52,238 nucleotides of DNA from an uncultured Anaerolineales bacterium (lineage in GTDB: Bacteria; Planctomycetota; Phycisphaerae; FEN-1346). A program made the translations under genes and the position numbers. This document shows positions 711-42,865 of this stretch, one piece after another (within the stretch, counting starts at the first letter, position 1; each line of letters starts with the position of its first letter). The notes beneath the pieces were generated by a model that was not told the origin of the DNA, searched no databases, and saw only the letters and a list, made by a program, of their open reading frames with translations. Where the stretch lies: assembly GCA_964437855.1 (NCBI GenBank), contig CAYTJE010000001.1, positions 1 through 52,238 of the forward strand. Reading direction: 5' to 3'.

Positions 711-1568
711 TCACATGTCCTTGAAGAGCGCGGGCTGCGGAGGCTCCGCCTTCACGCTGCGCATTCTGGGGCGCCGAAGCATGATCTTGGGGCGCGGAAA
801 GCGCCTTGGCTCCAGGCGGTGTCTCGCCATGGCGCAATACGCTTCGCTGATGTCAATCCCGATAAACCTCCGGCCGGTCGACTTGGCCGCCACGCAGGTG
901 GCCCCGGAGCCGTTGAACGGGTCAAGGACGATGTCCCCCGGAAAGTCTTCCGACGGCACCTCGGCGAACGTGTACATGAGAATCAGGCGCTGCGGAAGAA
1001 CCACCGGGAACGGGGCGGGATGGCCTCCGGTGCGCGCCACGTCTTCAGGGTACATGGGCCACACCTGCATCGTCAGGTTGACCCACTGTTCCTGGGACAG
1101 TTTGCTGGCTTCCTTGACAGCCTTGGGCAGTTTCCGGGGCTTGCCCGGCTTGACAAACACATTGATGAATTCAATGGTATTGTCTTCGTAGAGATTTGGG
1201 GGGTACGGGTAACTGCCGAACATCTTGACGGTTGTTTGTTTCTGCCAGATGTAGAGGCTGAACCGCTCAAAGGCGCAGGCCTCATCCCTCAGAATGGACG
1301 CCTCGATGTCGTTGTTCAAGTTCTTCAGGTGCCGCGTATGGCTCTTGTTCATCGCCTTCTTGGGAACGGGCACCCTGGGCGTGTTGATGCAGAGTTTGCC
1401 GTTCGGAACCAGGACGCGGCCGGCCTCGCGCCAAACCGCCAGGAGGTCGGCCAAGTAATCGTCATACGAGGGCTGGCCGATCTGCCCCTCCACGCCGTAG
1501 TCAACCAGGTTCCAATAGGGAGGGCTGGTGACGATCACGTGCACAGACTCTTCCGGCAACTCGGCCAT
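711..1568 (-). CDS. Beta-class DNA amino-methyltransferase, SPPY type (likely N4-cytosine; N6-adenine not excluded)
   Basis: VIVTSPPYW (motif IV) lies at the N-terminus and LDPFNGSGATCVAA (motif I, FxGxG) near the C-terminus, the order typical of beta-class MTases. No cognate endonuclease is visible. Confidence 0.85.
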   Translation of the reverse strand: MAELPEESVHVIVTSPPYWNLVDYGVEGQIGQPSYDDYLADLLAVWREAGRVLVPNGKLCINTPRVPVPKKAMNKSHTRHLKNLNNDIEASILRDEACAFERFSLYIWQKQTTVKMFGSYPYPPNLYEDNTIEFINVFVKPGKPRKLPKAVKEASKLSQEQWVNLTMQVWPMYPEDVARTGGHPAPFPVVLPQRLILMYTFAEVPSEDFPGDIVLDPFNGSGATCVAAKSTGRRFIGIDISEAYCAMARHRLEPRRFPRPKIMLRRPRMRSVKAEPPQPALFKDM

Positions 1569-4052: not shown

Positions 4053-4235
4053 CGGCTCAGTATCGCCTCCTTGAGGGGTTATCGGCTCGTTTCGGCGCTG
4101 TTCTCAATGGTATAGCGCCGGCGGCGCGGGGTCAATGCGGGGAGGCGGGAGGGGTGCCCTTCGAGCCGCGTGTGTAAGCACGCGGGTTCGCACAATCGGT
4201 GGCGCATGTATCGCACGCGAGTATCGCGCCGCCAA

Positions 4236-4270
4236 TCGAGCATACCCGCGACCTCACGGTCGCGGCTCGA
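4236..4270. repeat. REP-like hairpin, family E (TCGAGC..CGCGACC-TCAC-GGTCGCG-GCTCGA)
   Basis: The 28-nt string CCCGCGACCTCACGGTCGCGGCTCGAAA (4245-4272) is identical to 42135-42162 inside mtaB. It lies immediately downstream of the stop of the 4276-5712 gene. Confidence 0.75.
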
Positions 4271-4275
4271 AAACC

Positions 4276-5712
4276 CTACTCGCCATAGACGACCATCGCC
4301 GGCAAACGTTCATAGGTATCGACGCCCGCCGGCGGCGGGGGCGCCGGGTCGCGGAACCAGGCGAGCAGATACGGCCCGTCGCCGGTGCGGCGATGGGCGT
4401 CCCACCAGGCCAGGCTCCGCCCGGCCCAGGCCAGGTCGGCGTCGCCGCCGGTCTTCCACTCGACGGCCCAGGCGTCGAGGGGTTGCGTGCGGCCGTCGGC
4501 GTCGGTGGCCTCGCTGCCGTCGACCCGAAGCATCGCGACGGCGTCCGGCCGGTTCGACAAAGCGCGCAAGCCGGCCGGGCTCGGCTCCACCGCCTTGCTT
4601 TCGAAGGGCATGGGCTGCGTATCAAGCAGGTGGAGCAGAAACCGCGCCGCGCGGCTTTCGAAAGCAGGCGCTTCGCCCAGACAGAGTACGCCCTGCACCT
4701 TGTATAGGTCGTCGGACGAAGCCAACACGGGAAGCGGAAACGGGGTTTCTCGAGGTTTCGGCAACGGGAAGCGGGCAGCGGTGCCGCCGTGCGACGCCAA
4801 GCAGACAAAGTGCTCCAAGGCCGCGAGCGGCTTTCCACGTTCGGCATAGTACACGCGGGCTTCGCGGATGCTTGGCCCTTCTGGCCCGGCAAACAGAACG
4901 ATCAGGACGCTTGACGCAGCGGCTAGCAACAGCATTGCTCCCACCAGAAACGCACGGCGGCGCTGAAGCAGAAGGGCAGCCACGAGCACGGCCAGCGAAA
5001 AAAGGGCTAGGCCCAGCCAGATCGTTGTCGAGTCTGCTCCCGGCCCTGAAGCCTCAGCGAATAACCAACAAGTGTCCGGTTGAACCGTGGCCAGCATGCC
5101 CGGCGGGAAGGACGCCGACACGACCTGTAGGTCATCCGGCGGCCGGTAATGTACGACCCGCGCCCGGCCCGGCGGAGCGCCGTTATCGGTCACAATGACG
5201 TCCAGTAGGCCACAGCGGGCCGCCATGTTGAATTCGCCGGGCAAGGTGGAAGAGTAGTAAATGGAGCGAACCTCTCGACCATCCAGGGCTTTACGGAGAT
5301 CCCGTACAAGACGCGTACTCCCTCGCGTCATCATTCGCCCCACGATAGCCACGTTCTCGGAGACGGGGCGAATCGGGATATCCTCTATCTCGCTGACATC
5401 AACTATATCACCATCGCTGCTCTCGCACCCAACCGTCACAGACAAGGGGCCGCCAGCGTAGAAGACGGGGAAAACGAACTCTTCGGTTCGGCCGGGAGCC
5501 ACGTGAAGCGGCGCCACGATGTCAACCGGGCCGCCACAGGAAACGCGAGTCCGGTCGAAAGGCCGGTCCGAGTCGTTCGAAACAACCAGCGTCACAGGCA
5601 CGTAATAGCCGACGCGCGCCAGGCCGTCGGTGACGTCGAGGGAGGCGGTGACGTCGATGTCTGCGGCGAGGGCGGCGGGGACGGCGAGGAGGAGAAGGGA
5701 AAATGATGTCAT
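4276..5712 (-). CDS. Hypothetical secreted/membrane protein (signal peptide plus two central TM helices)
   Basis: Start chosen at ATG 5712, giving MTSFSLLLLAVPAALAADI, a signal-like N-terminus. The longer ORF to 6066 runs through a repeat and into the upstream gene. No recognisable domain. Confidence 0.6.
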   Translation of the reverse strand: MTSFSLLLLAVPAALAADIDVTASLDVTDGLARVGYYVPVTLVVSNDSDRPFDRTRVSCGGPVDIVAPLHVAPGRTEEFVFPVFYAGGPLSVTVGCESSDGDIVDVSEIEDIPIRPVSENVAIVGRMMTRGSTRLVRDLRKALDGREVRSIYYSSTLPGEFNMAARCGLLDVIVTDNGAPPGRARVVHYRPPDDLQVVSASFPPGMLATVQPDTCWLFAEASGPGADSTTIWLGLALFSLAVLVAALLLQRRRAFLVGAMLLLAAASSVLIVLFAGPEGPSIREARVYYAERGKPLAALEHFVCLASHGGTAARFPLPKPRETPFPLPVLASSDDLYKVQGVLCLGEAPAFESRAARFLLHLLDTQPMPFESKAVEPSPAGLRALSNRPDAVAMLRVDGSEATDADGRTQPLDAWAVEWKTGGDADLAWAGRSLAWWDAHRRTGDGPYLLAWFRDPAPPPPAGVDTYERLPAMVVYGE

Positions 5713-5805
5713 GCTGAGCGCCGCGACGCATCTCGCCTTGCTCCACAGCCAAAACAAAAGACCACGGCGAGATTCTTCGTCGCCCTGCGGGCTCCTCAGA
5801 ATGAC
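5708..5805. repeat. MITE-like palindromic element, family B
   Basis: The left end GTCATGCTGAGCG..CGACGCATCTCGCC and right end GGCGAGATTCTTCGTCG..GCTCCTCAGAATGAC are inverted copies. It fills the spacer between the debranching gene and the 4276-5712 gene. Confidence 0.75.
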
Positions 5806-5819
5806 AACCGGTTTGCCCA

Positions 5820-8042
5820 TCACGGCGCGCCCCCCGTCTCCTCCAGCATCCGCCAGATATGGATCGCGGCCGCCACCGACCACGCCTGGGCGATGCACCC
5901 GCCGGGTGCGTGCGGCGGGTCGCCGTCGTACACCTCGCCAATCTGGCCCAGACACGCCTCGTCCATGGCATCCACGAGCCCAGAGAGGATCTGCCCCGCC
6001 TCGCCCCGGGCACACTCGCGGCACTCGACGGCGAAGACGGCGTCGACGTACGGCCCCAGGAGCCACGGCCAGGCGGTGCCCTGGTGGTAGGCGGCGTCGC
6101 GCTCGTCCGGGCCGCCGCGGTACACCCCTTTATACGAGGGATGGGCCGGGTCGAGCGTCCTGAGGCCGCGGGGCGTCAGGAGCCGCTCGCGGACCGTCCG
6201 GACGACGGCCTTCGCGCGCTCGCCCCGCAGCGGCGCGTGCGGCAGGCCGACCGCGAAGATCTGGTTCGGCCGGATCGCGGGGTCGGGGGTGCCACCCGGC
6301 GCGATGCAATCGTACAGACACCCCGCGGCCTCGTTCCAGAAGAGGGCCTCGAAGGCGTCGCGGGCGGACGCGCGAAGGCCGCACGCCTCGGGCGCCTCGA
6401 CGCCGAGCGTCTCGGCCATCTCCTCCACGAGGGCGAGGCCCGAGAGCCAGAGGGCCTGGACCTCGACCGCCTTCCCGTGGCGGGGCGTGACGGGCCGACC
6501 GTCGGACGTGCGGGCGTCCATCCACGTCAGTTGCGTGTGCTCGTCACCGGCCAGGACGAGACTGTCGGCGTCGGCATGGATGCCGAACCGCGTGCCCTCG
6601 GCGCAGCGGCGGACGATGTCGCAGGCGACGGGCCAGAGCGAGGCGCGGGCGTGGTCGGCCCAGCCGGGGTCGTGGGGCACTTCCTGCTCGCCGCACCACG
6701 TCACGTACGCCGCCAGGGCCTGGAGGAACCAGAGGCCGGCGTCGACGGTGTTGTAGGCGGGCTCGCCGTCCTCCTCACCGAAGGAGTTGGGGATGAGACC
6801 ATCGGCAGCGGCGGCGGCGAACGCCTCCAGGACCATGGCGGCCTCCGCGGGCCGCCCGACCTCGATCGCCAGGCCCGGCAGGGCGATCATGGCATCGCGG
6901 CCCCAGTCGGCGAACCACGGGTAGCCGGCGATGACGGTCCGCAGGTCCTTGCCCGCGGCGCGGCGGCAGACGAGGAAGGCGTCGGCGGCGCGGCGGAGGG
7001 CGGAAACGGGATCGGTCGCGCTATCGGAGGGGCCGGAGCGGAGGGGGATATCCCGCCGCTCCCGCGGCGGGCTCGAAGGCATGGCGCGCGGCGGGCTCGG
7101 AGACGGCGGGTCGAAGACACAGAACAGGCGGCAGTCGCCGGGGCCGGAACCGCGGACGGTCCATCGGCCGGGCGCGAGGAGGTCCTGCGTGAAGTCAAAC
7201 CCGCGCTCCCGCTCGACGCGGACCTGGACGCCCTCGTACCACGTGGGCTCGCCGCCGGCCTCGACGGAAACATCCCCCTCGCTGTCATCCTGAGGCCCGC
7301 AGGGCCGAAGGATCTCGCCTTGGTCGTTCGCCGGCGCGCCGTTCTCACGGCGAGGTTCTTCGTCGCGGCTTCGCCGCTCCTCAGAATGACAGCCTTCCGG
7401 GACATCCGCCCACACGAACACGCCCGGCAGGCCCTCCGTCAGGACCCGCCAGCCGGGGGCGTCCTGGAGAAGTTCCGCGCGGAAGCGGTCGTGCTTGTGG
7501 CCCAGATGGTGCATCGACCGCAGGGCGAGCATCGGGGCCAGGTCGAGCGTCCAGTCGCCGTCGGCCTGGACCTCATAGGTGATGCATACGCCCGCCGCAT
7601 CCGGCAGCAGGTGGACCTCACGGGTCACCGTCGGCCCGGCGGCGCGGGAGACGAGGGCCACCCCGCTTGCGCGGCGGGTCTCCGCACCCGCCGCGTGGTC
7701 AACCAGACCGCCTATCCTGCGCGGTGGCTCCGCAGACCCACCGCGCGGCACATTATGGAACTCGAAGGCCACCGCCGAGCCGTCGGGATGAAAGCCGCCT
7801 GAGTACTCGGTGGTGGAGAGCCAGGCCTCGCCGTCGGCGGTCGCGAGCCGCTCGTCGATGTGCGAGAGGACGACGTGCCGCCCCAGCGGCGGCCGCAGCG
7901 CCGGCACCCACAGGCCGTGATACCGGCGCGTCGGACACAGGAGCACCGTGGAGGAGGCGTAGCCGCCGCCGCCGTCGGCCAGGAGCCACTCGGTGGCCAG
8001 GGCGCGGTCGAGGTCTCGCAGGTCGTCGGCGCGGCGGTGCAT
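5820..8042 (-). CDS. Amylo-alpha-1,6-glucosidase / glycogen debranching enzyme (bacterial-archaeal GDE type)
   Basis: N-domain GGGGYASSTVLLCPTRRYHGLW and C-domain GYPWFADWGRDAMIALPGL, with a long alpha/alpha-toroid-like tail. Start set at ATG 8042 (MHRRADDL...), because the ORF part upstream of it overlaps a repeat. Confidence 0.85.
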   Translation of the reverse strand: MHRRADDLRDLDRALATEWLLADGGGGYASSTVLLCPTRRYHGLWVPALRPPLGRHVVLSHIDERLATADGEAWLSTTEYSGGFHPDGSAVAFEFHNVPRGGSAEPPRRIGGLVDHAAGAETRRASGVALVSRAAGPTVTREVHLLPDAAGVCITYEVQADGDWTLDLAPMLALRSMHHLGHKHDRFRAELLQDAPGWRVLTEGLPGVFVWADVPEGCHSEERRSRDEEPRRENGAPANDQGEILRPCGPQDDSEGDVSVEAGGEPTWYEGVQVRVERERGFDFTQDLLAPGRWTVRGSGPGDCRLFCVFDPPSPSPPRAMPSSPPRERRDIPLRSGPSDSATDPVSALRRAADAFLVCRRAAGKDLRTVIAGYPWFADWGRDAMIALPGLAIEVGRPAEAAMVLEAFAAAAADGLIPNSFGEEDGEPAYNTVDAGLWFLQALAAYVTWCGEQEVPHDPGWADHARASLWPVACDIVRRCAEGTRFGIHADADSLVLAGDEHTQLTWMDARTSDGRPVTPRHGKAVEVQALWLSGLALVEEMAETLGVEAPEACGLRASARDAFEALFWNEAAGCLYDCIAPGGTPDPAIRPNQIFAVGLPHAPLRGERAKAVVRTVRERLLTPRGLRTLDPAHPSYKGVYRGGPDERDAAYHQGTAWPWLLGPYVDAVFAVECRECARGEAGQILSGLVDAMDEACLGQIGEVYDGDPPHAPGGCIAQAWSVAAAIHIWRMLEETGGAP
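7285..7391. repeat. Family B MITE-like element embedded in frame in the debranching-enzyme CDS
   Basis: GTCATCCTGAGGCCCGCAGGGCCGAAGGATCTCGCC ... GGCGAGGTTCTTCGTCGCGGCTTCGCCGCTCCTCAGAATGAC. It is translated as GCHSEERRSRDEEPRRENGAPANDQGEILRPCGPQDDS. Confidence 0.7.
7669..7746. repeat. REP doublet (family A) embedded in frame in the debranching-enzyme CDS
   Basis: Two hairpins: CGCGGCGGGT-CTCCGC-ACCCGCCGCG and GCGCGGTGG-N9-CCCACCGCGC. The span is 78 nt, or 26 codons. It is translated as ..VPRGGSAEPPRRIGGLVDHAAGAETRR.. Confidence 0.7.
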
Positions 8043-8110
8043 GGGGCGCTCCGAACGGACGAACCGCAACCTTACGGTTGCGGCTCGGGCGAAGCAAGTA
8101 TAAAAGGCCC

Positions 8111-8326: not shown

Positions 8327-8419
8327 GACTGTTCGCGCGGTGGGCCGGGAGACCCACCGCGCGGAATGGCTGCGACTGTTCGCGCGGTGGGCCGGGAGAC
8401 CCACCGCGCGGAATGGCTG
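8326..8419. repeat. Tandem duplication (2 x 47 bp) of a family A REP hairpin
   Basis: CGACTGTTCGCGCGGTGGGCCGGGAGACCCACCGCGCGGAATGGCTG occurs twice, identical and head to tail. Each unit contains the stem CGCGCGGTGGG / CCCACCGCGCG. Confidence 0.9.
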
Positions 8420-22257: not shown

Positions 22258-23976
22258 ATGAACCGCCGCCAGTTTCTGCGAACCGCCGGTCTCGGAGCCG
22301 CCGCCTTCCTCACCGGGTGCCGGGCCGCCGCCCGTGCAGCCGCCCCGGCCAAGCGGCCGAACATCATCCTCATCATGTCCGACGACATGGGGTACTCGGA
22401 CCTCGGGTGCTACGGGGGCGAGATTGAGACGCCCACCCTCAATTCGCTAGCGGCCAAGGGCGTCCGCTTCACCCAGTTCTACAACACGGCCCGGTGCTGC
22501 CCCACGCGGGCCAGCCTGATGACCGGCCTGTACCAGCACCAGGCGGCCGTCGGCCACATGATGGGCGACCGCAACCTGCCGGGCTACCGCGGCGACCTGA
22601 GCCGGAATGCCGTCACCATTGCCGAGGCCGTCAAGCCCGCCGGCTACGCCGCCTACATGTCCGGCAAGTGGCACGTGACGCCCCACACCCGCCCGGACGG
22701 CCCCAAGCACAACTGGCCGCGGGCGCGCGGGTTCGACCGTTTCTTCGGCACCATCCACGGGGCGGGGTCGTTCTACGACCCGAACAGCCTGACCCGCGAC
22801 AACACCCAGATTCCGCCCGGCAAGGACTTCTATTACACCGATGCCATCAGCGACAATGCCGCCGGCTACATCCGCGACCACAGGAAGCAGAAACCCGACG
22901 CGCCCTTCTTCATGTACGTGGCCTATACGGCCGCCCACTGGCCGATGCACGCCCGGCCGGAAGACATCGCCCGCTACAAAGGCCGGTACGACGCGGGCTG
23001 GCAGGAGATCCGCCAGGCCCGGTACAAACGGATGCGCCGGATGGGCCTCCTGAAGGAGCCGTGGGACCTCTCGCCCCGCGACGCCAAACGCTGGGAACAG
23101 GTCTCGGAGGCAGACAAAAAGTGGCACGCCCGCCGCATGGAAGTCTACGCCGCCATGGTCACCGTCATGGACTCTGGGCTAGGCCGCATCGTCCAGGCCC
23201 TGAAGGAGACCGGCCAGTACGAGAACACGCTCATCCTCTTCCTCGAGGACAACGGCGGGTGCGCCGAGGAGTTCGGCAGCCGCGGCAAGCCGCGCAACCA
23301 CGCCAAAAACCTCAAGAAGGCCGAACCGATGGCCCCGGACGCCCTCCAGACCCACATGGTGCCGCCCGTCACGCGCGACGGCCGCCCCGTGCGCGTGGGT
23401 CACGGCGTAATGCCCGGCCCGGCCGACACGTACATCGCCTACGGCAAGGAGTGGGCGAACGTCTCGAACACCCCCTTCCGCCTGTACAAGCACTGGGTGC
23501 ACGAGGGCGGCACCGCCACGCCGCTCATCGCCCACTGGCCCGCCGGCATCCCGACGGACCGGCACGGGGCGATGGAGCGGCAGCCCGGCCACCTCATCGA
23601 CATCATGGCCACCTGCGTCGACCTCGCCGGCGCCGACTATCCCGAAACGTTCAAGGGGAACCGGATCACGCCGATGCAGGGCGTGAGCCTGGCCCCAGCG
23701 TTCCTCGGCAAAGACGTGGGCCGCGACGAGCCCATCTACTTCGAGCACGAGGGCAACCGCGCCATCCGCGACGGCAAGTGGAAACTCGTCGCCAAGGGCG
23801 CGGGCGGACCGTGGGAACTGTACGACATGGAGGCCGACCGCAGCGAACTCCACGACCTGGCCGGGAAGCACCCCGACCGCGTCCAGGCGATGGCCGAGCG
23901 GTGGGAGGCCTTCGCCCGCCAGGCCCACATGATCCCCTGGCCCTGGAAAGGCAAGTACCGACGCAAGAAGGGATAA
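22258..23976 (+). CDS. Sulfatase 3 (arylsulfatase-like, Cys-type, Tat signal)
   Basis: MNRRQFLRTAGLGAAAFL, MSDDMGYSD and CCPTRASLMTG. GAAAGGAG RBS at 22245-22252. Confidence 0.9.
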   Translation: MNRRQFLRTAGLGAAAFLTGCRAAARAAAPAKRPNIILIMSDDMGYSDLGCYGGEIETPTLNSLAAKGVRFTQFYNTARCCPTRASLMTGLYQHQAAVGHMMGDRNLPGYRGDLSRNAVTIAEAVKPAGYAAYMSGKWHVTPHTRPDGPKHNWPRARGFDRFFGTIHGAGSFYDPNSLTRDNTQIPPGKDFYYTDAISDNAAGYIRDHRKQKPDAPFFMYVAYTAAHWPMHARPEDIARYKGRYDAGWQEIRQARYKRMRRMGLLKEPWDLSPRDAKRWEQVSEADKKWHARRMEVYAAMVTVMDSGLGRIVQALKETGQYENTLILFLEDNGGCAEEFGSRGKPRNHAKNLKKAEPMAPDALQTHMVPPVTRDGRPVRVGHGVMPGPADTYIAYGKEWANVSNTPFRLYKHWVHEGGTATPLIAHWPAGIPTDRHGAMERQPGHLIDIMATCVDLAGADYPETFKGNRITPMQGVSLAPAFLGKDVGRDEPIYFEHEGNRAIRDGKWKLVAKGAGGPWELYDMEADRSELHDLAGKHPDRVQAMAERWEAFARQAHMIPWPWKGKYRRKKG

Positions 23977-24118: not shown

Positions 24119-25618
24119 ATGAACCGCCGCACGTTTCTGCACTCGGCCGGCCTGGGGGCCGTGGGCCTGGCCCGGGCCGCCACCGCCATGGAGCGGGCCC
24201 CCAGCGCCGCTCGCTCGCGCTCGCGGCTAGCAGAGACAAACCGGGTCGCGACCGCCCCCCGAGCCGCGACCCTAAGGGAGCGGCCCAACATCCTCCTCAT
24301 CCTCCCCGACGACCAGACCTGGCGAGACAACGGCTGTTACGGCCACCCGGACGTCCGCACGCCGAACATCGACCGCCTGGCCGAGGCGGGCATGCGGTTT
24401 ACCCACTGCTTTACCGCGACGGCCATGTGCGCCCCCACCCGCCAGCAACTCTACACGGGCCTCTTTCCCGTCCGAAACGGCGCCTACCCGAACCACAGCC
24501 GCGTCTACGGCGGGACCCGGAGCATGGTCCACCACCTGAAGGCCCTGGGGTACCGGGTGGGCATCGCCGGGAAACACCACTTCGGCCCGCGCGACTCGTT
24601 CCCCTTTGAGAACCTCAAGCCCAAGGACGTGCCGGCGTTCATCGGCCGCAAGCCGGACGAGCCGTTCTGCCTCATCGTCTGCTCGCACAGCCCGCACCTG
24701 CCGTGGAAGGCCGGCGACGCCTCCGCCTACGACCCGGACGCCCTCACCCTGCCGCCCTACCTGGTGGATACGCCCGAGACGCGCGAGGCCCTCACGAAGT
24801 ACTACGCCGAGATCACGGACTTCGACCGCGAGGTGGGCGAGTGCATGCGGCACGTGCGTGAGGCCGGCGCCGAGAAGGACACGATCTTCATCTACACGAG
24901 CGAGCAGGGCGCCCAGTTCCCGCACGGCAAATGGACGTGTTACGACGTGGGCCTGCGCACCGCCCTGGTGGTCCGCTGGCCCCGTCGCGTCAAACCGGGC
25001 ACCACCACCGACGCCCTGGTCCAGTACGTGGACGTGGTGCCGACGCTGATCGAGGCGGCCGGCGGCGACCCGGCCCGGATCGACACCGGCTGCCCGGACG
25101 CCCGGGGCGAGACCGGCTTCGACGGCCGCAGTTTCCTCGGCGTCCTCCTCGGCCGGGCCGACACGCACCGCGACGCCGTCTACGGCGCCCACACCACGCG
25201 GGGCATCATCGCCGGGTCCGACTGTTACCCCATCCGCTCGGTCCGCACCCGGCGGTACAAGTATATCCGCAACCTGAACCACGAGTCGGCGTTCCACAAC
25301 GTCCTGATCCAGCGGGAGAAGTCCTACTGGCCGTCGTGGCAGGAGAAGGCCAAGACCGACCCCAAGGCCGCCTACCTGGTCCGGATGTACGAGCACCGGC
25401 CGGCCGAGGAACTCTACGACCTGCGGGCGGACCCGTGGGAACTGGAGAACCTGGCCGATGAGCCCGCCCTGGCCCGGGTCAAGGCCGACCTCCGCAAACG
25501 CCTGGACGCCTGGATGGCCCAGCAGGGTGATAAGGGCAACGCCACCGAGATGCAGGCCCGCCAGCGCCAGGGCCGCGGCAAGAAGAAGAAACGGGCCAAG
25601 GCCAAACCGGACGCCTGA
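24119..25618 (+). CDS. Sulfatase 4 (Cys-type, Tat signal; heparan/N-sulfoglucosamine-sulfatase-like)
   Basis: MNRRTFLHSAGLGAVGLA, LPDDQ and CAPTRQQLYTGL. The spacer between the signal and the mature domain is unusually long. Confidence 0.9.
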   Translation: MNRRTFLHSAGLGAVGLARAATAMERAPSAARSRSRLAETNRVATAPRAATLRERPNILLILPDDQTWRDNGCYGHPDVRTPNIDRLAEAGMRFTHCFTATAMCAPTRQQLYTGLFPVRNGAYPNHSRVYGGTRSMVHHLKALGYRVGIAGKHHFGPRDSFPFENLKPKDVPAFIGRKPDEPFCLIVCSHSPHLPWKAGDASAYDPDALTLPPYLVDTPETREALTKYYAEITDFDREVGECMRHVREAGAEKDTIFIYTSEQGAQFPHGKWTCYDVGLRTALVVRWPRRVKPGTTTDALVQYVDVVPTLIEAAGGDPARIDTGCPDARGETGFDGRSFLGVLLGRADTHRDAVYGAHTTRGIIAGSDCYPIRSVRTRRYKYIRNLNHESAFHNVLIQREKSYWPSWQEKAKTDPKAAYLVRMYEHRPAEELYDLRADPWELENLADEPALARVKADLRKRLDAWMAQQGDKGNATEMQARQRQGRGKKKKRAKAKPDA

Positions 25619-34404: not shown

Positions 34405-34518
34405 GTCGTTCGATCCCGCCGCGGGAGCGGCGGGTCATCACCATCCGCCGTGGTCGACAACCAAGGCAGACGCCGATGTCCGGCTGCTTCCGCAGCCGGC
34501 TCGAACGGCAAACAGGCA
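34405..34518 (+). repeat. Sulfatase-leader element copy c1 (114 nt, structured, inverted termini)
   Basis: GTCGTTCGATCC-[CCCGCCGC GGGA GCGGCGGG]-TCATCACCATCCGCCGTGGTCGAC...[CCGGCTGC TTCC GCAGCCGG]-CTCGAACGGCAAACAGGCA. It ends 25 nt before ATG 34544. Confidence 0.75.
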
Positions 34519-36155: not shown

Positions 36156-36269
36156 GTCGTTCGAACCCGCCGCGGGAGCGGCGGGTCATCACCATCCGGC
36201 GTGGTCGATGACCTCGGTAGAGGCGGATGACCGGCTGCTCCCGCAGCCGGCTCGAACGGCAAACAGGCA
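36156..36269 (+). repeat. Sulfatase-leader element copy c2 (114 nt)
   Basis: Same length and ends as c1. There are about 12 mismatches by eye, mostly in the central 28 nt. It ends 27 nt before ATG 36297. Confidence 0.75.
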
Positions 36270-41491: not shown

Positions 41492-42865
41492 ATGGCCGAC
41501 CCGTTCCGCACCTTCAAGGTGATCTCGTTCGGCTGCAAGGTCAATCAGACCGAGGGGTGGGCCCTGGCCGAGCGCCTTCGCGGTCTGGGCCTGCGCGAGG
41601 TCGGCCGCCGCGCCCGCGCCGACCTGGTCATCGTCAACACCTGCTGCGTGACGGCCGAGGCCGCCCGCCAGGGCCGACAGCGCGTCCGCCGGGCCCTTCG
41701 CCGTGACGCCGGCGTCGCGGTCACCGGCTGCGACGCGCACCCTGCGGCCGAGGACGCGGCGCTCGGCCAGATCGAAGACCTCCTGGCCCTGGAGGCCGAC
41801 AAGACCCGCCTCCTCGCCCGCCTCACGGACACGGGCCGGCTGCCGGAGGAGGCCGAGGGCGCCACCCGGAGCGGGCCGGAAGGCGAACCGGCGTCCCAGC
41901 CGCGGAGCCGGGCCTTGCTCAAGGTCCAGGACGGCTGCCCCGGCGGCTGCACGTACTGCATCGTGCCCAGGGTCCGGCCCCGCGTCCGCTCGTTGCCGCC
42001 AGAGGAGGCCGTCCGGACAGCCGAGCGCCTGGTCGCGGAGGGGTTTCGCGAGATCGTCCTCTGCGGCATCCACCTGGGGCTGTACGGCTGCGATCTCGCA
42101 CCGTTGTCGAGCCCCGACCGTAAGGTTGGGGGTGCCCGCGACCTCACGGTCGCGGCTCGAAAGGCAGGCGCGCCCGGCCTCGCCGACCTCCTTGCGCGCC
42201 TCCTGGCAATCGACGGCCTGGGCCGGGTGCGCCTGTCGAGCATCCTGCCCACAGAGGTGGGCGGCTCGCTGCTGGCGCTGATGGCGGCGGAGCCGGACCG
42301 CCTCTGCCCCCACCTGCACCTCCCGCTCCAGTCGGGCGACGACGAGGTCCTTTCGCGCATGGGTCGGCCGTACACGTCGGCCGATTTCCTGGGGGCCGTC
42401 GAGCGGGTCCGCGGGACGCTCGACGCGCCGGCCATCACCACCGACGTCCTGGTGGGCTTCCCCGGCGAGACGGACGCCGCGCTGGAGCGGACCCTCGCCG
42501 TGTGCCGGGAGGCCCGGTTCTCGCGGATGCACGTCTTCGGGTTCTCGCCCCGCCCGGGGACAGGGGCGGCCGAGGGGCCCGACCCCGTCCCCGGCGAGGC
42601 GAAGCGGGCGCGAGTCCGGCGGGCGGCGGCGCTCGGCGAGGAACTGGCCGAGGCCTACCGCCGCTGGCTCGTGGGCCGACGCGAGCAGGTGGCCGTCGAG
42701 ACGGTCCACCGCGACGGCGCCGCCGAGGGCCTGGCGGCACGCTACGTCCGGGTCCGGGTTCGCGGCCCTTTGCCGGAAGGCGCCGGCCGGCGGGACCTCG
42801 TGCCCGTGCGGCTCAAGGGCGCCGACGGCGAGGCGCTCGCGGCCCAACTCGAGCCGCAAACGTGA
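41492..42865 (+). CDS. mtaB: tRNA methylthiotransferase, MtaB/MiaB family (radical SAM)
   Basis: UPF0004 N-domain (KVISFGCKVNQTE, VIVNTCCVT), radical SAM LKVQDGCPGGCTYC, and a TRAM-like C-terminus. Confidence 0.85.
   Translation: MADPFRTFKVISFGCKVNQTEGWALAERLRGLGLREVGRRARADLVIVNTCCVTAEAARQGRQRVRRALRRDAGVAVTGCDAHPAAEDAALGQIEDLLALEADKTRLLARLTDTGRLPEEAEGATRSGPEGEPASQPRSRALLKVQDGCPGGCTYCIVPRVRPRVRSLPPEEAVRTAERLVAEGFREIVLCGIHLGLYGCDLAPLSSPDRKVGGARDLTVAARKAGAPGLADLLARLLAIDGLGRVRLSSILPTEVGGSLLALMAAEPDRLCPHLHLPLQSGDDEVLSRMGRPYTSADFLGAVERVRGTLDAPAITTDVLVGFPGETDAALERTLAVCREARFSRMHVFGFSPRPGTGAAEGPDPVPGEAKRARVRRAAALGEELAEAYRRWLVGRREQVAVETVHRDGAAEGLAARYVRVRVRGPLPEGAGRRDLVPVRLKGADGEALAAQLEPQT
42107..42160. 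repeat. Family E palindromic element (54 nt = 18 codons) in frame in mtaB
   Basis: The arms TCGAGCCCCGACCGT and ACGGTCGCGGCTCGA have one mismatch. It contains the 28-nt string that is identical to 4245-4272. Confidence 0.7.

Follow-up and report, generated by a model that had tools for sequence, protein, structure and literature searches.

How can a dispersed palindromic repeat come to lie within the reading frame of a conserved enzyme, and what kind of repeat is it? The question is raised by a 52,238-nt contig of an uncultured Phycisphaerae bacterium (CAYTJE010000001.1; this whole stretch, with a G+C content of 70%, is the window referred to below), in which the gene for a glycogen debranching enzyme (GDE; 5820–8042, minus strand) carries a 109-nt palindrome at 7283–7391. 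An original prediction, made from the letters alone, had described a segment of about 107 nt at 7285–7391 as a palindrome resembling a miniature inverted-repeat transposable element (MITE); its inverted termini are real, while its extent is shifted by 1 nt, to 7283–7391 (109 nt). We consider it very probable that the element is a head-to-head doublet of repetitive extragenic palindromic (REP) type that was inserted into the GDE gene and would now be translated as a loop, with the survival and movement that we propose for it below.

The gene encodes an amylo-alpha-1,6-glucosidase-type GDE of 740 aa in one open frame, in which TRRYHGLW upstream and YPWFADWGRD downstream of the element share the same frame and in which Pfam recognizes GDE_C (E 1e-109) and, in two separate stretches, GDE_N, in accordance with the earlier view of a single continuous gene. 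Homologs number in the thousands, and close orthologs are typically 656–670 aa long as against 740 aa here. In an alignment of 29 sequences (A2) the window protein (P0001) matches the other 28 at every invariant column and differs from them by three additional blocks. The gene order GH15–GDE–hypothetical–HflX is the same in six ortholog loci, which shows that these are true orthologs, and dN/dS (the ratio of nonsynonymous to synonymous substitution rates) of 0.24–0.34 (Nei–Gojobori, 646 shared codons, pairs with the insert in both genes) places the GDE gene under purifying selection. What flanks the palindrome is thus one gene under purifying selection that recurs in independent assemblies, with no sign of the frameshift that would have told against it.

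The peptide encoded by 7281–7391, CHSEERRSRDEEPRRENGAPANDQGEILRPCGPQDDS, forms residues 218–254 (C218–S254) of the enzyme. In an AlphaFold2 model built from the alignment, with a mean predicted local distance difference test score (pLDDT) of 69.7, pLDDT drops below 50 at residues 100–125, 218–254 and 316–343; the second of these stretches is exactly that of the 37 element-encoded residues, set between beta strands 208–213 and 258–263, where an extra surface loop had been anticipated. A fold search with the model confirmed the architecture of beta-sandwich plus (alpha/alpha)6 barrel and no more, and a PDB sequence search, which covers the C-terminal glucosidase domain only, returned no solved structure over the insertion site. 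The element-encoded segment is accordingly modelled here as a predicted disordered surface loop of the N-terminal beta-sandwich domain. An exhaustive HMMER search with the 37-aa peptide against 1.84 billion representatives yielded 0 matches at E ≤ 0.001 and a word-indexed protein search with the 42-aa insert yielded no candidates; for searches of this kind the query is both too short and too biased in composition.

That the segment is an insertion is seen by comparison with orthologs at the same position (site B). In two syntenic loci, L004 and L005, the site is uninterrupted (...TGGGCGGAT AGC GGC AAC GCC GAG GCC..., that is GAT-AGC-GGC-AAC-GCC-GAG), and at the identical position the window and loci L001, L002, L003 and L006 have an element of the same family, termed family 1 here. 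Counted relative to the empty site, the extra length is 43 aa (129 nt) in the window, 44 aa in L001 and 46 aa in L006, all with a doublet, 65 aa in L002 with three half-units and 27 aa in L003 with a single half-unit; L123 has 48 extra aa, comprising a truncated family-1 half and a second element, and L124 has 40 aa from a different element. The inserts of all seven loci are stop-free, and we infer from this conservation of frame that the loop is translated. The segment is missing from most orthologs, so that its expected absence holds and it is not a conserved part of the enzyme; the expected size of about 36 aa does not, since 43 aa are added and the palindrome encodes 37 of them.

The element is a bipartite palindrome, TGTCAT...ATGACA (plus strand TGTCATCCTGAGG ... 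CCTCAGAATGACA), with inverted termini GTCATCCTGAGG at 7284–7295 (plus strand) and GTCATTCTGAGG at 7379–7390 (minus strand). Its outer arms, 7281–7295 and 7379–7393, form a 15-nt inverted repeat of 93% complementarity, and an inner pair of arms is found at 7299–7322 and 7346–7369. As single-stranded DNA the element region folds at −32.3 kcal/mol (z −3.6), and the sense-strand mRNA of the element at −61.4 kcal/mol (z −4.5), a stability reached by 0/200 shuffles. Each half-unit consists of a TGTC tag, the first strand of a 5-bp stem beginning with AT, a variable inner hairpin with GA on either side, the second stem strand and the CTCGCC tail. Between stem and inner hairpin this layout shows a tandem G.A internal loop and a CYGA 'foot'. 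Half-unit 1 (7346–7391, minus strand) has, on the coding strand, the TGTC tag, ATTCT stem, GA, GCGGC-GAA-GCCGC inner hairpin, AGAAC, the CTCGCC tail and GTG; half-unit 2 (7283–7319) is inverted, with its tag on the plus strand, and consists of TGTC, ATCCT, GA, GGCCC-GCA-GGGCC, GA, AGGAT and CTCGCC. The spacer between the two (7320–7345) is like those in other Phycisphaerae copies (GTGGTCGTTG...GTTCG).

Two intergenic copies, at 557–667 (111 nt, plus strand, between the convergent genes 48–494 on the plus and 711–1568 on the minus strand) and at 5707–5806 (100 nt, minus strand, starting 13 nt beyond the end of the GDE gene, its stop codon), align with the element and bring the family-1 doublets of the window to 3. 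The original assignment of repeats at 558–666 and 5708–5805 to the same family is upheld both by this alignment and by an nhmmer profile of the six half-units, for which only those six are significant in the 52 kb (E 3e-11 to 6e-6; next match E 0.11). In all six halves the TGTC tag precedes a covarying stem, the tags being outermost (head-to-head), and C[CT]GA (CTGA or CCGA) stands directly 5' of the inner hairpin. The outer stems are of five kinds (ATTTC/GAAAT, ATTCC/GGAAT, ATGCT/AGCAT, ATTCT/AGAAT and ATCCT/AGGAT), and the further pairing ATTCT/AGAAC has one mismatch. Each half-unit is free of stops in 4/6 frames. At gathering thresholds Rfam gave no match in the whole window, and at permissive E-values only chance-level matches between 400 and 8200 (the most noteworthy, Acido-Lenti-1 at 7052–7082, reached 20.5 bits where 37 is the gathering score). 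A hammerhead ribozyme, which CUGAGGA plus a stem might suggest, was rejected for lack of GAAA after stem II, in agreement with Rfam.

The half-unit reaches far beyond this lineage. A pattern scan (TGTCATTCYGA-N8-38-GARGAATCTCGCC) of one representative genome per species found its frame, of which ~25 nt are conserved, at no fewer than 116 loci, with ~20 phyla represented among the matches listed; these include Planctomycetota, Chloroflexota, Acidobacteriota, Nitrospinota, Bacteroidota, Cyanobacteria, Patescibacteria, Omnitrophota, Bacillota, Deinococcota, Actinomycetota and several proteobacterial classes. Carriers in culture include Tannerella forsythia ATCC 43037, Aeoliella sp. SH292 and Neglectibacter caecimuris, and the related metagenome-assembled genomes (MAGs) JAWODB and CAZNYC each have many loci among the matches listed. 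Among 106 distinct copies spread over many phyla, the stem has at its Y/R pair T-A in 70, C-G in 33, C-A in 3 and T-G in 0, and a looser search found fully compensated stems (ACCCT/AGGGT, ATCCT/AGGAT, ATGCT/AGCAT and ATTTC/GAAAT); this covariation and compensation establish that the stem is real. An inverted partner lies within 150 nt in 50/132 copies of other genomes among the matches listed, single half-units stand alone in many genomes as they do at site B of L003, and the inner hairpin measures 8–38 nt. The pattern occurs in 2 of 2.9 million viral contigs. Clustering of the open reading frames (ORFs) around the 132 copies revealed no recurrent neighbour protein family, and the genes enclosed by inverted copies are ordinary ones (nitrilase-like, kinase-like and hypothetical). 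The frame has no Rfam family, and no description of it was found in the searchable open literature by sequence and peptide strings. Moreover, in an Acidobacteriota MAG (L119, CAWIUZ010000202.1) two family-1 doublets (VILSEAKNLA...) lie in frame in a PolB-like ORF (~residues 437–540), between two Pfam DNA_pol_B stretches of this family B DNA polymerase.

Among known systems, Rickettsia palindromic elements (RPEs), as they are presented in papers citing their description (Ogata et al., 2000, 2002, as cited in PMC10969869 and PMC3733652), are likewise dispersed palindromes that occur between genes and in frame in housekeeping genes, add tens of residues at fold-compatible positions and may occupy several sites in one protein. 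The analogy with Rickettsia drawn by the original prediction is therefore sound; the notability claimed for it is not, since intragenic REPs have been reported in many species (PMC3733652). The differences are that RPE-1 is ~150 bp long, that a sequence relationship of the present element to RPE families is not apparent from their descriptions and is unlikely in view of host lineage and G+C content, that the host is a 70% G+C free-living Phycisphaerae lineage and not a reduced intracellular genome, and that the unit is a doublet of tagged hairpins with a frame common to several phyla. REPs have been sorted into GTAG- and CGTC-tagged superfamilies occurring in 8 phyla, including the Planctomycetes–Verrucomicrobia–Chlamydiae superphylum; CGTC units have 8–9 bp stems starting with AT, 4–5 nt loops and a CCA tail, and occur mainly as head-to-head dimers that lack an associated transposase (Di Nocera et al., 2013, PMC3733652). 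RPE-4 and RPE-6 of Rickettsia are such CGTC REPs, and intragenic REPs, which are spread over many species and reach their highest numbers in Opitutus terrae and R. conorii, are in many cases dimers adding 20–30 aa (PMC3733652).

The family-1 element has in common with GTAG/CGTC REPs and with REP doublet-forming hairpins (REPINs; Bertels and Rainey, 2011) its short hairpins, unpaired 4-nt tag, short tail, the prevalence of head-to-head dimers that form a larger hairpin, and its location near gene 3' ends and sometimes within genes; with CGTC REPs in particular it shares a stem starting with AT, the predominance of head-to-head dimers and the lack of a transposase gene nearby. However, the tag is TGTC (6/6 window halves and the cross-phylum pattern), the tail is CTCGCC and not CCA, the stem is composite (5 bp, G.A/G.A and a variable hairpin of 8–38 nt, in place of 8–9 bp and a 4–5 nt loop), and the ~25-nt frame conserved over ~20 phyla goes far beyond a 4-nt tag. 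Because tag, composite stem and tail differ, we do not file the unit as a CGTC REP. The Neisseria dRS3 unit, CGTC-ATTCCCGC-loop-GCGGGAAT-CCA, has GTC-ATTC...GAAT-C in common with the family-1 element.

A third group for comparison is formed by the REPs of class 3 TnpA-Y1 enzymes. Quentin et al. (2018, PMC6006769) report class 3 HuH-Y1 genes chiefly from Planctomycetes and Acidobacteria; flanking these genes are atypical hairpins of high copy number (~600 in Solibacter usitatus), with a CnGA foot on the 5' side, as in CCGAGCCGCGACCGTAAGGGAGCGGA. We compared our elements with the sequences in Table S1 of that paper. The likeness comprises the CnGA foot directly 5' of the hairpin, tandem G.A internal loops and the occurrence in Planctomycetes and Acidobacteria. 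In addition, the class 3 core (GCCGCGACC-GTNA-GGGAGCGG) is present at 5 window loci (7 strand matches, against 0.21 expected) and is nested in the family-1 half-units at the GDE site of L002, L003, L006 and L123; CCGAGCTGCGACCGCACGGGAGCGG in the ortholog copies at this site (L006) agrees with the published class 3 REP CCGAGCCGCGACCGTAAGGGAGCGG at 22/25 positions. On the other hand, the GDE copy of the window lacks this core and has other inner hairpins, and PMC6006769 contains no description of the outer TGTCATTC...GAATCTCGCC frame. Given that the CnGA foot is common to all six halves and that the class 3 core occurs in ortholog copies, class 3 TnpA-Y1 would be the best candidate for a mobilising enzyme; no class 3 gene was found in the window or the fetched loci.

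One property of the element is unexpected. Among the window, L001 and L002, half-unit 1 (7346–7391) is identical at 45/46 and 46/46 positions, and the intergenic doublet at 5707–5806 is identical to its L001 counterpart (L001:5221–5320) at 99/100, whereas the GDE core is 86% identical among the same three loci and synonymous sites differ by 26–29%. At the core rate, ≤1 difference in 100 nt has a binomial probability of 7.5e-6, and at the synonymous rate one of 3e-12. The element is thus far more conserved at orthologous sites than the surrounding DNA, and since the immediate flanks have diverged, local gene transfer does not explain this. Candidate explanations are that the hairpin is under selection or that the copies homogenise one another. 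A bolder proposal, which we put forward as speculative and rather doubtful, is that the TGTCATTCYGA...GARGAATCTCGCC frame might represent a single ancient pan-bacterial REP-type replicator whose copies would be maintained or homogenised by conserved trans-acting machinery, class 3 HuH-Y1 or other.

This conservation bears on whether the loop has been co-opted, the peptide now having a selected function as, for instance, a charged linker or interaction site. Retention of the insert over a divergence of dS ~0.3–0.45 and the near-invariance of half-unit 1 in three genomes speak for co-option, yet the conservation is at the nucleotide level, includes synonymous positions and is equally strong in the non-coding copy, the peptide is wholly different among carriers (CHSEERR..., CHSDRAAT..., with variable right halves), the region is predicted to be disordered and many orthologs have no insert at all; we regard co-option as very improbable. 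A MITE in the classic sense, derived by deletion from an insertion sequence (IS) with a DDE transposase, moving by cut-and-paste and having transposase binding sites in its TG...CA repeats, would account for the terminal inverted repeats (TGTCATYCTGAGG / CCTCAGRATGACA) and the length of ~100–110 nt. Such TG...CA termini are reminiscent of the ends of IS3, IS481 and Mu. Bacterial MITEs with in-frame fusions (ERIC, BOX, Correia and Nezha; PMC10969869) are also small, non-autonomous, palindromic and dispersed, and occasionally lie within genes with an open frame. MITEs are defined, however, by IS-derived terminal repeats and target duplications, neither of which is evident here: no consistent direct repeat flanks the 3 window and 4 ortholog copies (old insertions may have lost short ones), and no IS with matching ends was found in ~900 kb around the 132 copies. 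Furthermore, half-units also stand singly, in many genomes as well as at site B of L003, and the arms are independent hairpins with compensatory changes, which a protein-bound duplex terminal repeat does not need. A MITE in this sense is very improbable, and 'MITE-like' remains apt for the inverted termini and the small size, not as a label. The element is better called a REP doublet (REPIN-like), because its tagged, covarying hairpins form head-to-head dimers near gene ends, with no discernible target duplication and no IS partner in the DNA around the copies.

It might also be asked whether the segment is absent from the mature protein or the gene dead, through pseudogenization, an assembly chimera, or removal or bypass at the RNA or translation level. 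The source is a metagenome-assembled contig and the mRNA hairpin is very stable (−61 kcal/mol); against this, the same architecture occurs in independent assemblies from different projects (L001, L002, L003 and L006), the frame is unbroken with all conserved residues kept and dN/dS below 0.35, five insert lengths are all stop-free multiples of three, which removal before translation would not require, and the GDE insert has neither intein motifs nor an Rfam ribozyme or intron match. This is, to our mind, the least credible of the alternatives, and highly improbable. Of more weight is the view that site B is a hot spot of recurrent independent insertion, in place of one ancestral insertion followed by turnover. 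Different elements occupy it in different orthologs (family-1 variants and the REPQALPAGT... element, which is also found at a second site, C), L001 and L002 have, in place of the right half-unit of the window, an altogether different half with the compensated stem ATGCT/AGCAT, and an empty sequence, P0010, falls within the carrier clade on the neighbour-joining tree. Conversely, family-1 carriers share diverged but homologous flanks adjoining the element (GCGAGGGGGAT, GCCAGGGGGAT and GCATGGGGGTC) that empty alleles do not have, which suggests one founding insertion of family 1, and in L123 the second element interrupts a family-1 half, so that the events there are layered and not alternative. 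We give recurrent insertion appreciable weight without favouring it. Later turnover, loss or repeated insertion at the site is nevertheless argued for by the swapped half, the three half-units of L002 as against the one of L003, and P0010; the data are compatible both with gain plus loss and with multiple gains.

We suggest, then, that a non-autonomous hairpin repeat inserted into the GDE coding sequence in an ancestor of a Phycisphaerae subclade, and that ribosomes would read it through as a 37-aa charged, disordered surface loop. It may have survived because the loop tolerates extra residues, the length is a multiple of three and the frame is stop-free; the enzyme would have stayed functional, with selection keeping the frame while the element was swapped, triplicated or truncated by lineage. 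As to movement, the hairpin was probably handled as single-stranded DNA, in trans, by a HuH-Y1 (IS200/RAYT-like) enzyme (RAYT, REP-associated tyrosine transposase), a mechanism that leaves no target duplication. Several observations weigh against this account. The argument from frame conservation is partly biased, in that only intact ORFs are retrieved as full-length proteins. The palindrome provides 37 of the 43 extra aa, and ~6 flanking residues (VPEG / EGDVS versus SGN) are unexplained by simple insertion. On a rough neighbour-joining tree the distribution of the element is patchy, and with P0010 empty among carriers a single insertion needs loss or else there were several insertions. No RAYT/Y1 transposase is encoded in the window, and a regular-expression scan of 124 loci gave one RAYT-like ORF, which does not flank an element. 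Finally, class 3 enzymes are rare (<0.3% of species; PMC6006769), as against a half-unit frame found in ~20 phyla.

Family 1 is not the only repeat in this gene, and the original prediction had missed two further in-frame repeat-derived segments of it, at sites A and C. Site A (7656–7742, minus strand) is an in-frame block of 27–29 aa, with pLDDT below 50 at residues 100–125, that is found neither in L003 nor in most orthologs and is made up of two family-2 hairpins (7671–7694 and 7721–7744); of this hairpin, GCGGCGGGT-N6-ACCCGCCGC, the window has 7 copies where 0.65 would be expected. At 7671–7694 the hairpin loop is GCGGAG on the coding strand in the window and CTCCGC in L001 and L002, and this reversal indicates that the hairpin was flipped, changing the peptide from AAGLRTRRA/P to AAGAETRRA. 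Site C (7014–7097, minus strand) is a disordered linker (pLDDT below 50 at 316–343) with an in-frame family-4 hairpin, CCCGCCGCGGGAGCGGCGGG, at 7052–7071; of this hairpin there are 5 window copies against 0.38 expected, with exact intergenic copies at 34415–34434 and 36166–36185, and a 39-nt match of site C to 36160–36198 is 87% complementary. More distant orthologs have a helical linker of similar length at site C, so that the repeat-derived segment seems to have replaced sequence there and not merely to have been added. In L123 (6001–8205) and L124 (6001–8208) an unrelated ~120-nt palindromic element, with the peptide REPQALPAGT..DAQAN..VPATEGRGS.., occupies both site B and site C in frame, and it is this element that interrupts the truncated family-1 half-unit of L123. 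The several repeat families in GDE loops, together with the PolB copies, show a general process at work, by which permissive loops receive repeats as they do in Rickettsia.

A sulfatase is a second window gene with an in-frame REP. Its coding sequence starts at 24119 and contains, at 24259–24283, a REP copy of class 3 TnpA-Y1 type (CCGAGCCGCGACCCTAAGGGAGCGG; peptide PRAATLRER) between the twin-arginine translocation signal peptide and the start of the conserved domain, ERPNILLI; in a paralog at 22258 the linker is ~20 aa shorter. The class 3 core (GAGCCGCGACC-N4-GGNNGCGG) is also found at 4246–4268, within a palindrome with 46-nt arms (4160–4271), at 8064–8086, just upstream of the GDE start codon, and at 42109–42131 and 42136–42158. 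Family-2 hairpins stand in tandem (GCGGTGGGCCGGGAGACCCACCGC) at 8337–8360 and 8384–8407 in the GH15–GDE intergenic region and, taken with the REP at 8064–8086, indicate that this spacer consists largely of repeats.

On the other side of the GDE gene, the outer terminus CAGCATGACA of the 5707–5806 doublet holds the ATG (5712–5710, minus strand) of a downstream signal-peptide gene (MTSFSLLLLAVPAALA...), and the same overlap occurs in L001 and L006; L002 and L003 have no family-1 element there, and show another repeat (GGATTGC / CTCAGGTA runs) and a different start. The element may thus have donated a start codon to this gene. The region 1–1570, around the first intergenic doublet, contains a C-terminal fragment of a DUF4143-like ATPase (48–494) and an N6/N4 DNA methyltransferase (711–1568, minus strand), appears unlike the rest of the window in composition and may be the edge of a mobile or defence-related island. 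Some ortholog glycogen operons have, between glycosyltransferase and GH57 genes, an Avd-like gene, of the 23S-rRNA intervening sequence (IVS) four-helix-bundle type (129–131 aa; L003:4856–5245, L006:1547–1942, L123:1500–1889 and L124:1407–1796), which is absent in L004; a tie of family 1 to this gene was considered and rejected, as no half-units adjoin it.

Intragenic palindromic repeats are already known in many phyla, and the GDE case adds a well-documented example that extends the Rickettsia-style picture of selfish palindromes in genes to a high-GC, free-living Phycisphaerae lineage. It amounts to an unusually complete natural experiment in which one enzyme, with three permissive loops that have received no fewer than four repeat families, is seen in empty, filled, swapped, triplicated, truncated and flipped states, and it shows that loops of the GDE N-terminal domain tolerate 27–65 extra residues. 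For annotators and structure predictors it is a warning that such low-complexity loops derive from repeats. It also points to a half-unit frame that crosses phyla and to a concrete candidate enzyme, class 3 HuH-Y1. If the frame were indeed a pan-bacterial replicator, this would account for 1 change per 100 nt in the element against a synonymous difference of 26%, and its maintenance would reach coding copies as well, so that the DNA coding for protein loops would be rewritten over and over through half-unit swaps, hairpin flips and layered insertions.

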